Below, piece after piece: positions 44,734-50,617 of a DNA stretch of 64,000 nt. The DNA lies in IMG/VR virus record IMGVR_UViG_3300045988_114239; one strand, given 5' to 3'. Position 1 is the first letter of the stretch. Every line of letters begins with the position of its first letter. The position numbers and the translations under genes were made by a program. The notes under the pieces were generated by a model. It had not been told where the DNA came from and ran no database searches. It saw only the letters and a program-made list of their open reading frames with translations. Source of the DNA: a virus.

Positions 44734-44753
44734 GATATTTACAATATTTTAAT

Positions 44754-44969
44754 TTATTTTGCTAAAACATTCATATAACATGGTACATCTACCACATCTC
44801 TTCTACGAAGTCCCTTATCAAAATAGGAAACCATATAAGTATTTTTACCTTCGTGATCAGGTCTGGGATCAAAACATTCAAAAACGAATCTTGTTATACC
44901 TTCCAAATGACCAAGCATGAAAACAAATTCGCCACTGTATCTTTTATTAGCCAATTCTTCTACAGTCAT
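44754..44969 (-). CDS. hypothetical protein
   Basis: 71-aa ORF. Confidence 0.45.
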   Translation of the reverse strand: MTVEELANKRYSGEFVFMLGHLEGITRFVFECFDPRPDHEGKNTYMVSYFDKGLRRRDVVDVPCYMNVLAK

Positions 44970-45193
44970 AATCTGTCCCCTCCTAATCCTGAATTGATGC
45001 TAACGTACTTAACACGGACATCATTTCCACGTCCAAGCTGACCCCAGCCGGGCGATGGCGTTCCCTTGGCCGGAGCAGGGACAGCCCTAAGCCGAGACCA
45101 GTCCTGCTTTTGTCTCATGGCGTCAGCCTCTTTGTAATACCGGTTACACAGTTCTTGATCTTCGTAACCAACGTAATCTTCCTTATTTTCCAT
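44966..45193 (-). CDS. hypothetical protein (inside a GC-rich island)
   Basis: 75-aa ORF with a 4-nt overlap. Confidence 0.4.
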   Translation of the reverse strand: MENKEDYVGYEDQELCNRYYKEADAMRQKQDWSRLRAVPAPAKGTPSPGWGQLGRGNDVRVKYVSINSGLGGDRL

Positions 45194-45263
45194 ATAGAAT
45201 ACTTTTTCAACAAAAGTACGACATTCATGAATTAATTAGATTTAAAATAAAACAATATGAATT

Positions 45264-45298
45264 AAAATAAAAACCCGATACGTTAAAATCGCATCGGG
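45264..45298 (-). terminator. Hairpin CCCGATACG/CGCATCGGG followed on the minus strand by TTTTTATTTT; alternatively the left-end hairpin of the TnpB element
   Basis: Direct reading. It lies between the TnpB insertion and the small-gene cluster. Confidence 0.4.
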
Positions 45299-45299
45299 C

Positions 45300-46743
45300 C
45301 TGGTATTGAAAAAAATAGGTTCAGATCTTGGGTAAAGATTCGAGCCAATTTTTAACATCTTTAGGTAATTATATACAACTTTACACCACAAATACGCCAA
45401 TTTGTTTTCATATATAAATAATAATTTCTATATTTGTGTCATGAGATTAGTCGAACAACATACAATCAAGCCAAGTTCTGTTTATTACAATGAGCTTTAT
45501 GACTTATTGCATAAGTGTAAAAACTTATACAATAAAGGGTTATATGTTGTTAGACAGTATTATTTTCAATACAAGGATGATAATACTGTAAAGTATAAGT
45601 ACCTAAACTACTATTCTCTTGAAAAGAAGTTAAGAACAGAAAATGATGTTGACTATCGTGCTTTACCAGCACCGGTTGCTCAACAAGTGTTGATGATGGT
45701 TGATAGAAACTTTAAATCTTTCTTCAATCTCTTTAATAAAAAGAATAGAGGTGAGTATTCTGAGGAAGTAAGAATGCCAAGGTATCTCAACAAGGGTGGT
45801 TTGTTTCCTGCTGTTTTTGCAACAAATGCTTTTTCTCAAAAATGGATAAAACAAGGCATTGTTAAGTTACCAAAACAGTTTTCCTTTACAACAAGAACTA
45901 ACAAGCAAAATATTCAACAACTTAGATTCATTCCTAAGAATGGGTATATTGTTCTTGAAATAGTTTACAATAAGAAGGAAAAGAATCTTATGTCCGATAA
46001 TGGGAACTATCTTGGCATCGACATAGGATTGGATAATTTAGCATCTTGTGTTTCAAACACCGGTTCTTGTTTTATCATCAATGGTAGACCACTAAAGTCT
46101 ATTAACCAATATTATAACAAAAGGTTAGCATTCTTAAAATCTAAGTTAAAAGACAATAAACAGATTTCAAAACAAATAAGGTCATTAACCGACAAAAGGA
46201 ATAACAAGATCAAAGACTATCTGCATAAAGCAAGTAGAATATTGGTTAATCATGTAGTTTCCAATGGTATTAATACGATCATAATCGGTCATAACAAGTG
46301 CTGGAAACAAGAGATCAATATTGGAAAGCGTAATAATCAGAACTTTGTATCTATTCCTTTTAATTCGTTTATCAGTATGATATCGTATAAAGCTACATTA
46401 GAAGGTATTAATGTTAAGATCGTTGAAGAATCTTATACTTCAAAATGTAGCTTTTTAGATAATGAACGGATTTGCAAACATGAATCTTACAAAGGAAGAA
46501 GGATTAAACGAGGATTGTTTAAAACCTCTTCTGGTAAGACAATTAATGCTGATATCAATGGTGCTTTTAACATCATCCGTAAATCGGAAAAAGAATCCTT
46601 TGATGTAACGATGTTACCAGAAGGTAGAGGGTTTTGGTGTAACCCGGTACGAATTTCCGTATAAATGTGTATTACTTTACGCTTTTGGTGTAAAGTGGTA
46701 TATAATCACCCATTTAGGGTCTTTGTCTATTCTATCTCTCAGT
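45300..46743 (+). mobile_element. IS200/IS605-family TnpB-only (IS1341-like) element; boundaries approximate
   Basis: A lone plus-strand gene in a minus-strand block. It encodes TnpB and there is no TnpA nearby. Confidence 0.6.
45441..46664 (+). CDS. tnpB: TnpB (OrfB) RuvC-like RNA-guided endonuclease homolog: RuvC-I GIDIGLDNLA, RuvC-II IVEESYTSKCS, RuvC-III NADINGAFNI; zinc finger degenerate (only two Cys)
   Basis: All three RuvC motifs are in canonical order and spacing. The N-terminal region is typical of the OrfB_IS605 family. The start was trimmed to MRLVEQ. Confidence 0.85.
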   Translation: MRLVEQHTIKPSSVYYNELYDLLHKCKNLYNKGLYVVRQYYFQYKDDNTVKYKYLNYYSLEKKLRTENDVDYRALPAPVAQQVLMMVDRNFKSFFNLFNKKNRGEYSEEVRMPRYLNKGGLFPAVFATNAFSQKWIKQGIVKLPKQFSFTTRTNKQNIQQLRFIPKNGYIVLEIVYNKKEKNLMSDNGNYLGIDIGLDNLASCVSNTGSCFIINGRPLKSINQYYNKRLAFLKSKLKDNKQISKQIRSLTDKRNNKIKDYLHKASRILVNHVVSNGINTIIIGHNKCWKQEINIGKRNNQNFVSIPFNSFISMISYKATLEGINVKIVEESYTSKCSFLDNERICKHESYKGRRIKRGLFKTSSGKTINADINGAFNIIRKSEKESFDVTMLPEGRGFWCNPVRISV

Positions 46744-47112
46744 TCATGCAATGCTGAGTCCATAACCGTATTCGGTACGCCAATCAAATCTCTTAGCAGA
46801 CTCTAATTTTGAAGATAATATAAGAGAATATAAACCAGATTCATTAATTATTCTTATACTATCTATATATCTGGTTTTCAATATAGATCGTTTTACGCCC
46901 CATTGATTATCAGATACTTGCAAAAGCATAGAATCATCATCATCTACATGTCTTTTTACCGCATCTTTAGCATTTATATATCCAAGAGATTTAGCCACAT
47001 CTGACGCCACAAACCAAACATCTCCTTTTGGATCTACAATAATTCTAAGCTCTCCAAAATCCGAACTTTCAAAAACAGAAACTTTATCCATGATAAAAAA
47101 AAATAGGCCCAA
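46744..47112 (-). CDS. Bro-N domain protein (phage antirepressor/KilA-N-like DNA-binding protein)
   Basis: Bro-N pattern F.S..FGELRIIVDPKGDVWFVASDVAKSLGY.NAKDAV.RHVDDDD. Confidence 0.7.
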   Translation of the reverse strand: MGLFFFIMDKVSVFESSDFGELRIIVDPKGDVWFVASDVAKSLGYINAKDAVKRHVDDDDSMLLQVSDNQWGVKRSILKTRYIDSIRIINESGLYSLILSSKLESAKRFDWRTEYGYGLSIA

Positions 47113-47270
47113 AAGAGAATGTCAGATCCCACTATGACAAACCCTAATGAGCCAAAAATATCTTTCAACATCAAACAACCAGAGGTGGGATCTCGTTGTT
47201 CATTGTTTCTGGAACAAAAATAGGAACAGGATCTTAAATAGCAAATATTTTAATACTTTTTAAATCAAAC

Positions 47271-47306
47271 CAGGGCCCGCATCACTGCGAGCCCTGATCT
47301 CTAAAC
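47271..47306. terminator. GC-rich hairpin CAGGGC-N14-GCCCTG in a 680-bp low-coding region
   Basis: Direct reading. It is an isolated GC-rich structure in AT-rich DNA, downstream of the 752-aa gene and upstream of Bro-N. Confidence 0.35.
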
Positions 47307-47371
47307 TAATACCATGAAATACTCAAATCTAAAAACTAAAGAACACACAAATGTATGAAAATGTATGCTTT

Positions 47372-50077: not shown

Positions 50078-50617
50078 TTATAAAACCGACTTATACAATG
50101 ACGGATCCCAAATTCCTTCTATATAAATCTCCGGAAAACTCAAACTGCCATCACGAAGAGTGGTGACTTCCAAGCTGGGAATGTTGAAAACAGTACTGGT
50201 ATCACCAAACTCACCATTCAACTTGATAGCATTTCCGCTGTTATTAGCCTCATAATAAAAATAACAATAATTTTCATTAATGCTTGGATCATATTCGTAC
50301 CAATATGTTAGATCTTGTATATGATCTTCTATGTTACCAATTTTGTTTTCACCTAATATAAAAATACCATTATTGCTATGATTATAAACCATAGATTCAT
50401 AACCACCATAATTCCAATTACTATTAAACATTATGTAACTAACATCAGAATCATGATCTTTTAATACAGGTCCTATATGTATATGAATTTTATTAAACTG
50501 ACATACATAAGGTCTTTTTCCTCCAAGCCTTTTTATATCTTCATTGGATAACTTATTATAACATCCTCCCACAAAATTATCCGCAGCATTAAAAAATCTC
50601 CTTCTCATACTTAACAC
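50078..50617 (-). CDS. hypothetical 179-aa protein
   Basis: Its start overlaps the stop of the 2238-aa gene by 7 nt. Confidence 0.6.
   Translation of the reverse strand: MLSMRRRFFNAADNFVGGCYNKLSNEDIKRLGGKRPYVCQFNKIHIHIGPVLKDHDSDVSYIMFNSNWNYGGYESMVYNHSNNGIFILGENKIGNIEDHIQDLTYWYEYDPSINENYCYFYYEANNSGNAIKLNGEFGDTSTVFNIPSLEVTTLRDGSLSFPEIYIEGIWDPSLYKSVL

Follow-up and report, generated by a model that had tools for sequence, protein, structure and literature searches.

The 64,000-nucleotide stretch of viral DNA analysed here (IMG/VR record IMGVR_UViG_3300045988_114239, referred to below as the window) carries a 1,347-bp transposon with one gene, tnpB. Comparison with related sequences indicates that this is a TnpB-only mobile insertion, real and active. 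It is probably a non-autonomous, cut-and-paste-type derivative of the IS1595 family, with no cargo other than tnpB and the scaffold of its guide RNA (ωRNA). A TnpB inside a DDE transposon with terminal inverted repeats (TIRs) is a known but rare kind of arrangement, and the window element had previously been filed under the wrong family, namely IS200/IS605, in a preliminary description made from the sequence of the window alone.

The ends of the element are defined by comparison with alleles that lack it. The nearest phage in GenBank, and the only close one, is crAssE-Sib (OR575929, 151 kb), an epsilon crAss-like phage, whose syntenic region (L001) aligns at 1566-2186 with window 44743-45363 and at 2188-2271 with window 46712-46795. 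The crAssE-Sib allele without the element (L001 2186-2188) reads CATCTTTA-T-ATTTAGGG, and the related locus L058 is also empty at the site; in these relatives the empty allele runs from CTTTA straight into T-ATTTAGGG. The comparison with alleles lacking the insertion, from which the preliminary description had hoped to obtain the boundaries, is available and does define them. A second copy of the element, 91% identical, occupies another crAssE-Sib locus (L002 4922-6270) with flanks unrelated to those in the window, and the limits of the element (Table 1) follow from the comparison of the window copy with this one, the right end lying at 46710 and not near 46760 as first described. The L002 insertion site was also sought in the window as a second empty site; that region is not represented there. 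The TIRs are 25 bp long, the left one and the reverse complement of the right one being identical at 23 of 25 positions, and the window contains exactly two occurrences of their 20-nt core, inverted relative to each other, where 0.02 would be expected.

Mobility is documented by sister copies. Among IMG/VR viral contigs, most of them 80-155 kb long, the TIR pattern occurs in at least 119 stretches. From these, 47 distinct full-length copies of the TnpB element were collected, with 82-100% identity, and the distinct flanks that were compared numbered 26 on the left and 35 on the right; several phage contigs hold two or three copies. No fewer than eight sister insertion sites show perfect 8-bp target-site duplications (TSDs), and corresponding empty sites exist as well (Table 1). 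The octamer TAAGTTAT, for instance, is duplicated around the TnpB element of L025 (11749-13095) and stands as a single, unoccupied copy in the window and in five other loci. Derivatives with internal deletions, resembling miniature inverted-repeat transposable elements (MITEs), occur in L033 (1853-2124, 272 bp), L090 (171-272, 102 bp), L041, L075 and L011. Several of the MITE-like derivatives retain the ωRNA region without the gene, and the one in L090 consists of two left ends; such derivatives might be guided or moved in trans. The preliminary description had left the choice between a hitchhiking insertion sequence and a domesticated nuclease, and it is the former that the empty sites and the many insertion sites bear out. 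A long-domesticated, immobile phage nuclease of transposon descent would accord with the fact that about 20 related contigs carry this insertion and share its odd junction, and with purifying selection on the protein; it is nevertheless hardly tenable, since crAssE-Sib and L058 are empty at the site, the distinct flanks known number at least 26 on the left and 35 on the right, single contigs contain several copies, and there are fresh TSDs, deletion derivatives and a copy at another site in crAssE-Sib. A gene fixed at one position, devoid of terminal repeats and of an ωRNA fold, is likewise not what was encountered; empty sites, TIRs and a structured RNA were found instead.

The assignment to IS1595 rests on elements with the same ends that carry a transposase. 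In L052 (179-3331, 3,153 bp) the same TIRs enclose a gene for a 307-aa IS1595-family DDE transposase (PF12762, 4e-42) with an IS1595 zinc ribbon, and this element is bordered by the 8-bp TSD ATTTTAGT, with empty sites in two loci. According to a protein-based scan, relatives of the L052 transposase are encoded in 236 gut-phage viral stretches; in the loci examined, 35 distinct elements have a TIR pair (at most three mismatches) around a transposase gene and 2-4 kb of variable cargo, and 14 of these 35 have perfect 8-bp TSDs. The cargo of these IS1595-type 'transporter' transposons (L052; L132-L185) includes small lipoprotein-like open reading frames (ORFs). Among 185,579 species-representative genomes the exact TIR is present in four stretches, belonging to Parabacteroides sp. 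AM08-6 (twice) and to metagenome-assembled genomes of Alloprevotella and Mucilaginibacter. An IS1595 transposase gene (43-86% identity) lies within a few kb of the TIR in three of the four, and no transposase was detected in the fourth stretch (L131). Taking phages and the three bacterial genera together, a 24-nt TIR that is identical or has one to three mismatches adjoins IS1595 transposases of 43-100% identity, and elements of the TnpB and transposase types coexist at separate places in several phage contigs. Because the same ends flank IS1595 DDE transposase genes both in phages and in Bacteroidota, the TIR is assigned to the IS1595-family lineage, and because neither the element nor the window contains a DDE transposase, the element is called non-autonomous; no transposase gene adjoins tnpB, in agreement with the absence of TnpA noted in the preliminary description. 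The TnpB element, as its shared ends suggest, has probably been moved in trans. With respect to IS1595 membership, it thus shares the TIRs of the family and lacks a transposase of its own, and the 8-bp TSD is present in its sisters and in the transposase elements and missing from the window copy. It could be supposed that the IS1595-like ends are coincidental or secondarily acquired and that a different transposase moves the TnpB element, given that no element holds TnpB and transposase together and that the transposase is missing from many TnpB-bearing genomes. Such an account is highly improbable in the face of a near-identical 24-nt TIR beside IS1595 transposases as divergent as 43-100% identity in phages and three bacterial genera, of the same 8-bp TSD in both kinds of element, and of their co-occurrence in several contigs.

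Neither IS200/IS605 nor IS607 elements have TIRs or TSDs (PMC13565253, PMC6188088), and both families are excluded here because TIRs and an 8-bp TSD are present. An IS200/IS605 element of the IS1341 type, moved as single-stranded DNA by a Y1 TnpA acting in trans and inserted 3' of a short motif without duplication, would be TnpB-only, as the element is, and would explain why the window copy has no TSD, why its left flank ends in TTTA, similar to IS605 targets, and why a hairpin lies close to the right end. This explanation, which the preliminary description had adopted, nevertheless retains next to no probability, as it accounts neither for the 25-bp TIRs nor for the perfect 8-bp TSDs of many sister copies with their matching empty sites, nor for ends held in common with IS1595 DDE transposase elements; in addition, the left end has no hairpin equivalent to that at the right end, and the nearest transposase-linked homologues adjoin a serine recombinase rather than a Y1 TnpA. 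In six loci a homologue with 57% identity (P0099) stands directly downstream of a gene with a Resolvase domain (serine recombinase), which is the IS607 arrangement, and the closest transposase-linked relatives of the window TnpB are, as far as this gene context indicates, of the IS607 type. No Y1 HUH TnpA was found with autonomous relatives, the sole transposase-linked homologue examined (P0099) being paired with the Resolvase-domain gene and the elements with the same ends being paired with a DDE transposase. Membership in IS607 itself is contradicted by the absence of an adjacent recombinase, by the TIRs and TSDs and by the termini, the element starting with GG but ending with CC; only the ancestry of TnpB and of the ωRNA appears IS607-like.

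From 33.4 to 64 kb, the tnpB gene is the only long plus-strand ORF that does not lie within a longer minus-strand ORF, consistent with its earlier recognition as the sole plus-strand gene at 33-64 kb. The ORF spans 45402-46664 (+) and its true start is the ATG at 45441, which gives the N-terminus MRLVEQ found in all homologues; the box that had been noticed ahead of the ATG, TATATTTG, is indeed present at 45429-45436, 4 nt before it, and the TAnnTTTG of this candidate promoter is retained in most sub-families of copies. The protein matches OrfB_IS605 (PF01385; 4e-22, 79 bits) and Cas12f1-like_TNB (PF07282; 1e-12, 48 bits) in Pfam, guided_TnpB in NCBIfam (NF040570; 184.9 bits, cutoff 100) and also PHROG 506. 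The profile matches exceed the curated cutoffs. The three RuvC motifs recognised in the preliminary description are well founded, D194 (GIDIGLDN), E330 (IVEESYTSK) and D371 (NADINGAFNI) being invariant across 17 homologues of 50-93% identity. The glutamate had been correctly placed in IVEESYTSK, and the further point is that the canonical RuvC-II site reads IIIGHNK, whereas the invariant E330 (with E329) lies five to six residues ahead of C336 and ends the next β-strand (β5) in an AlphaFold2 (AF2) model (predicted local distance difference test score 84.5). On the evidence of this model E330 occupies the rearranged 'Ealt' position, a RuvC-II-rearranged type of TnpB described in Yoon et al. 2023 (PMC10711439) and in Altae-Tran et al. 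2023 (PMC10691335). The AF2 model resembles Cas12f, the TnpBs of ISDra2 and ISFba1 and the mimivirus Fanzor2; a phmmer search of the PDB with the TnpB sequence gave no match, and a profile of the homologues did reach TnpB and Cas12f.

The zinc finger had been described as degenerate, with its second CxxC missing. The loss is real and was understated: the protein has no CxxC pair, leaving only C336 and C345, of which C336 alone is invariant. The term degenerate does not apply, since the alignment with homologues, which had been proposed as a check, shows that the C4 finger is missing from every homologue down to 50% identity, the region aligning with the CxxC...CxxC of Cas12f. Because it is common to a whole clade under purifying selection, the loss is read as a feature of the lineage, and, to judge from these alignments, not as decay of the window copy; loss of the zinc finger is documented in PMC10691335 for some large TnpB branches. 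Codon positions differ strongly in diversity among the 47 copies, with values of about 0.2-0.3 for the third and about 0.04 for the first two, and since variation is concentrated at third positions the gene is taken to have been kept functional by purifying selection.

Other TnpBs occur in these phages. In L057 (3059-4378) a second TnpB lineage (403 aa, 42% identity, no zinc finger) is enclosed by the same TIRs in a 1,320-bp element, which has A rather than T as its right-flank base. A second TnpB gene of crAssE-Sib (L002 1-936; OR575929 58986-60125) is not represented in the window; the crAssE-Sib paper mentions merely 'two TnpB transposases' in some Epsilonunovirus genomes, and gives the two TnpBs of that phage as only 18% identical.

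An ωRNA scaffold had been expected just past the stop codon, and a structured region of 125 nt does extend from within the end of tnpB to the last base of the element (Table 1). The 7-bp hairpin noted there exists, 2 nt away from the coordinates given for it: its core, ACTTTAC-N9-GTAAAGT at 46674-46696, lies inside the 17-pair hairpin at 46666-46704. The copies, including three diverged ones that are alike only over the last 122 nt or so, align along 46586-46710, and similarity stops exactly at 46710. The RNAalifold consensus has five helices with 40 pairs, nine of them with compensatory double changes; 97.2% of cells are paired, compared with 39-54% for slid partners, and none of 500 shuffles reached any of the observed measures. 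The window scaffold taken alone folds at z = -3.1 to -3.9, and the third-position diversity of the tnpB ORF falls over its last 100 nt or so, where the scaffold overlaps. The diverged copies (75-80% identity over the last ~122 nt) are in L061 (8980-9100 and 10289-10409), L087 (7605-7726) and L089 (near 5546-5666) and gave most of the compensatory changes; in L061 no recognisable tnpB of the window lineage is present upstream of the copies of ωRNA and right TIR. A covariance-model search, the other check proposed at the outset, was productive with a model built from the copies (R1), which with filters off recovered the 3' end of an IS607-type homologue (L124 4107-4218, 28.7 bits) with the same helix order, a conserved UAGAGG motif and a different terminal hairpin; with default filters no match was obtained in the IS607-type relatives. 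By these comparisons the scaffold fits an ωRNA from an IS607-type ancestor whose last stem was remodelled around an IS1595 end.

The flanks of the copies reveal a target motif. Just before the left copy of the TSD, position -9 is A in 25/26 left flanks, position -10 is A or T (25/26) and position -11 is T (17/26); the first base of the TSD is T in 21/26, and the first base past the right end is T in 34/35 right flanks. The mirror positions hold little information, and an A adjoins the right end in 34/35 cases compared with 15/26 at the left end (Fisher p = 1.6e-4). The motif, T-W-A^T (W, A or T), is most simply a strand-transfer preference of the transposase. Its asymmetry was considered as a proof of selection by TnpB and rejected, as transposase-only elements and right-end deletions share A^T. 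Because the transposase target equals the target-adjacent motif (TAM) in IS605 and IS607, we infer by analogy that TWA would be the TAM, the near-fixed T a base of the scaffold or of the flank, and the guide the TSD together with the DNA downstream; in ISXfa1 the fixed right-flank base belongs to the scaffold (PMC10711439). For the window copy the predicted guide begins at 46712 (ATTTAGGGTCTTTGTC...); in crAssE-Sib and L058 the empty allele agrees with it from the first to at least the sixteenth base, immediately behind TTTA-T. This guide would extend into the gene remnant that is joined to the Bro-N ORF, in line with the direction toward Bro-N that had been predicted earlier. In contigs with the insertion at the same site the elements are 98-100% identical and the flanks 95-97%, with the same atypical junction throughout, which speaks for recombination, either by homing or of the general kind among phages, as the means of spread and against repeated transposition.

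These observations can be assembled into a mechanism. An IS1595-family transposase would move the element in trans, supplied either by a Parabacteroides/Bacteroidota host or by a larger transposon that resides in this phage or in one co-infecting with it, and strand transfer at the right end would favour 5'-T-W-A^T. Transcription through tnpB would then yield an ωRNA that has the right TIR in its last hairpin and takes as its guide the flanking DNA past the conserved right-flank T, beginning with the duplicated target and continuing into the sequence behind it. The TnpB-ωRNA complex could recognise unoccupied alleles (TWA, T and a guide match) in sister or co-infecting phages and cut them, and recombinational repair would copy the element in, amounting to homing or gene drive as proposed for the TnpBs of IS605 and IS607; occupied alleles would be protected because ...ATCACC stands where the TAM was. 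Put as a whole, an IS607-derived TnpB and its ωRNA may have been captured by an IS1595 DDE transposon in crAss-like gut phages and refitted, with the right TIR as terminal hairpin, TWA^T as TAM plus fixed flank base and the TSD as start of the guide, the nuclease then serving to insert the element wherever a co-infecting phage has an unoccupied allele. This wider model is plausible but tentative, and somewhat less likely than not to be right. A competing view accepts the mobile IS1595-type element and regards TnpB-ωRNA as serving something other than homing, be it as a regulator, as a weapon aimed at host DNA or at competing phages, or as a selfish passenger retained on some other account, with TWA^T merely a preference of the transposase. 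It draws on the A^T tendency of transposase elements without TnpB and of the right-end adjacent deletions, on the second TnpB lineage with A instead of T at the right flank of the same TIRs, and on the consideration that the break left by DDE excision can already be repaired from a sister copy, which makes restorative homing less obviously needed (PMC13565253). We regard it as unlikely, though with a real chance of being right: the intact catalytic residues argue against a TldR-like regulator, a scaffold that stops where the transposon stops leaves only flanking DNA to act as guide, which is also how homing systems are arranged, the empty allele contains a match to the guide predicted for the window copy, placed there behind TTTA-T, and the element is younger than its flanks at the shared site.

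Several observations weigh against the capture and homing model or against the IS1595 derivation beneath it. Transposase-carrying elements share the A|T preference, in a weaker and more two-sided form, which peaks at TIRs of the sequence variant found at TnpB right ends (adjacent A in 19/22); the A^T preference may accordingly be a property of the transposase and not necessarily a TAM as well. No TIR pair was found that holds both a transposase and a window-type TnpB, the TnpB matches near transposase loci lying outside TIR pairs, and there is no IS1595 transposase in the window or in crAssE-Sib, so that mobilisation in trans is deduced from the shared ends only. With regard to the RNA, two diverged sub-lineages account for most of the compensatory changes, which hence reflect few independent events, and a permissive Rfam scan of window 44-48 kb returned no family, only chance matches below threshold. 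Finally, the window copy and its same-site relatives have no TSD and have C in place of T at the right flank; they also have A rather than G at position 4 of the left end. The window copy may have been altered, or may have arrived through recombination instead of transposition, and its missing TSD reflects either an exact 8-nt deletion of one copy or an insertion without a staggered cut. Slippage among TTTA repeats was considered as a cause of the lost TSD, and no scenario gave a clean fit.

Around the insertion, phage genes have been truncated or lost. The element interrupts the 3' part of a small gene annotated in crAssE-Sib as 'DNA binding protein' (L001 2144-2314). Beginning 85 bp to its right, the window has a 3.7-kb deletion relative to crAssE-Sib (L001 2272-6000) in which about eight genes were lost, among them a spike-like gene and, for its C-terminal two-thirds, the antirepressor, and which created the Bro-N fusion ORF; among some 15 relatives with the same TnpB insertion this deletion is present in the window alone, that of L024 being different. 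In L113, L073, L050 and L040, which share the left junction of the window, deletions of about 3-4.5 kb start exactly at the right end of the element and join it to downstream sites that read A^T in undeleted genomes, again with loss of phage genes; these right-end deletions are read as adjacent deletions of the kind that transposases produce. An intergenic segment upstream of the Bro-N ORF (47259-47324, minus strand) gave a weak match to the Bacteroidetes small RNA FopS (27 bits, gathering threshold 56, E = 0.4) that is probably due to chance.

Table 1. Features of the TnpB element, its surroundings and its sister insertions (window coordinates)
Feature	Position	Strand	Sequence or remarks
TnpB-bearing transposon	45364-46710 (1,347 bp)	+	Breakpoints against crAssE-Sib and more than 100 gut-phage contigs
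Left flank with target motif	45353-45363	+	TAA 45353-45355 (-11 to -9); TTA 45361-45363 abuts the left end
Left TIR	45364-45388	+	GGTAATTATATACAACTTTACACCA; breakpoints against L001 and L002, motif statistics, same TIR around IS1595 transposase genes
Left-end non-coding stretch	45389-45440	+	Candidate Bacteroidota-type promoter: TTTG 45401-45404, TAnnTTTG 45429-45436
tnpB	45441-46664	+	407 aa plus stop; D194, E330 (alternative position), D371 (NADxN); no C4 zinc finger
ωRNA-like scaffold	46586-46710 (125 nt)	+	Overlaps the final 79 nt of tnpB, stop included
Scaffold helices	P1 outer and inner 46597-46624; P2 46629-46645; P3 46647-46662	+	RNAalifold
Scaffold terminal hairpin	46666-46704	+	17 pairs, then tail AUCACC; contains right TIR
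Right TIR	46686-46710	+	TGGTGTAAAGTGGTATATAATCACC; 3' arm of terminal ωRNA hairpin
Right-flank base	46711	+	C in window; T in empty allele and 34/35 distinct right flanks
Predicted guide segment	46712-46731	+	ATTTAGGGTCTTTGTCTATT; positional inference, copy conservation stops at 46710
Truncated Bro-N antirepressor ORF (outside element)	46744-47112	-	Fused to 3' remnant of small DNA-binding-protein gene, junction 46786-46795
Unoccupied sister target	50548-50560 (octamer 50548-50555)	-	TATAA then TAAGTTAT
TSD of L025			TAAGTTAT
TSD of L087			TTTGCTTT
TSD of L034 / L013			TAATGAGA
TSD of L099			TCCTTTTT
TSD of L017			TTCTTTTA
TSD of L107			TTAACTAA
TSD of L069			TTGCTCTC
TSD of L086 group			TTGATTTA

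TnpB is the ancestor of Cas12 and is in use as a compact genome editor. To our knowledge its biology is understood almost wholly through IS605 and IS607, with their scarless excision, and we know of prokaryotic TnpBs in DDE transposons with TIRs and TSDs from survey-level reports only. The anatomy of the element described here is unusually clear from comparative evidence and yields a testable model of how a guide RNA adapts to a new transposon: the family offers a concrete case of a guide-RNA scaffold remade to fit the end of a foreign transposon and of the way in which a TSD can become part of the guide, and direct tests become possible of the TAM, of the part played by the right-flank base and of homing from one phage to another. 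In the annotation of epsilon crAss-like phages, 'transposases' of this sort are signs of mobile DNA that is active and that gives rise to adjacent deletions and truncated genes. The protein may also be of interest for genome editing, with its 407 aa, lack of a zinc finger, Ealt glutamate and probably A/T-rich TAM. If the wider model is true, it would represent gene drive within one of the most abundant groups of human gut viruses, and the capture would be the prokaryotic-virus counterpart of the eukaryotic Fanzor1 captures.

Associations between TnpB and DDE transposases have been surveyed before. Altae-Tran et al. 2023 in PNAS (PMC10691335) distinguish six DDE-associated TnpB branches with inverted terminal repeats, DDE-6 being linked to IS630, and describe solo TnpBs whose ends match those of transposase-bearing relatives, implying mobilisation in trans. 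A 2026 review (PMC13565253) lists ISL2, IS630 and IS1031 as DDE partners and considers such associations rare in prokaryotes. IS1595 is not named as a partner of TnpB in the main text of the former or in the review, and a literature search for TnpB with IS1595 returned nothing relevant; DDE-associated TnpBs have thus already been reported, but not, in these sources, with IS1595. The window element resembles the known branches in that TnpB is enclosed by symmetrical inverted repeats, in that the 3' end of tnpB lies no more than 250 bp from the transposon end (46 nt here), and in that the ends of the solo TnpB element resemble those of transposase-bearing relatives. It differs from them in its partner, IS1595, in that transposase and window TnpB never occur in one element, in its residence in crAss-like (epsilon) phages of Bacteroidota, and in a variable 8-bp TSD that would start the guide.

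Compared with the IS607 TnpBs represented by ISXfa1 (PMC10711439), the element has in common a 57%-identical homologue placed after a serine recombinase and the order of the ωRNA helices; unlike them, it has no serine recombinase and no GG crossover ends, it has TIRs and TSDs, and its presumed TAM is A/T-rich (TWA) where that of ISXfa1 is GGG. With the IS1341 group it shares a lone tnpB, the absence of a transposase and an ωRNA at the right end, but IS200/IS605 elements have sub-terminal hairpins and neither TIRs nor TSDs (PMC13565253), whereas window-type elements have both. Closer in organisation are Fanzor1 and Fanzor2* (PMC10711439), in which an IS607-derived nuclease with Ealt was captured by a cut-and-paste TIR transposon and the TIR lies in the scaffold; the use of the right TIR in the terminal hairpin parallels the incorporation of TIRs into the scaffolds of Fanzor1 right-end element RNAs (reRNAs) (PMC10711439), and the Fanzor1 element of a Spodoptera frugiperda ascovirus (PMC10711439) is, like the window element, non-autonomous, present in several copies and located in a virus genome. 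Unlike the Fanzors, the window element is prokaryotic and phage-borne, its RuvC-I motif is DIG and not DPG, it has no zinc finger, and the variable TSD of window-type elements cannot be scaffold. Set against IS1595 insertion sequences, it carries an RNA-guided nuclease and a guide scaffold as cargo in place of a transposase, while sharing with them the TIR sequence, the 8-bp TSD and sisters that encode the DDE_Tnp_IS1595 transposase with its zinc-ribbon N-terminus.

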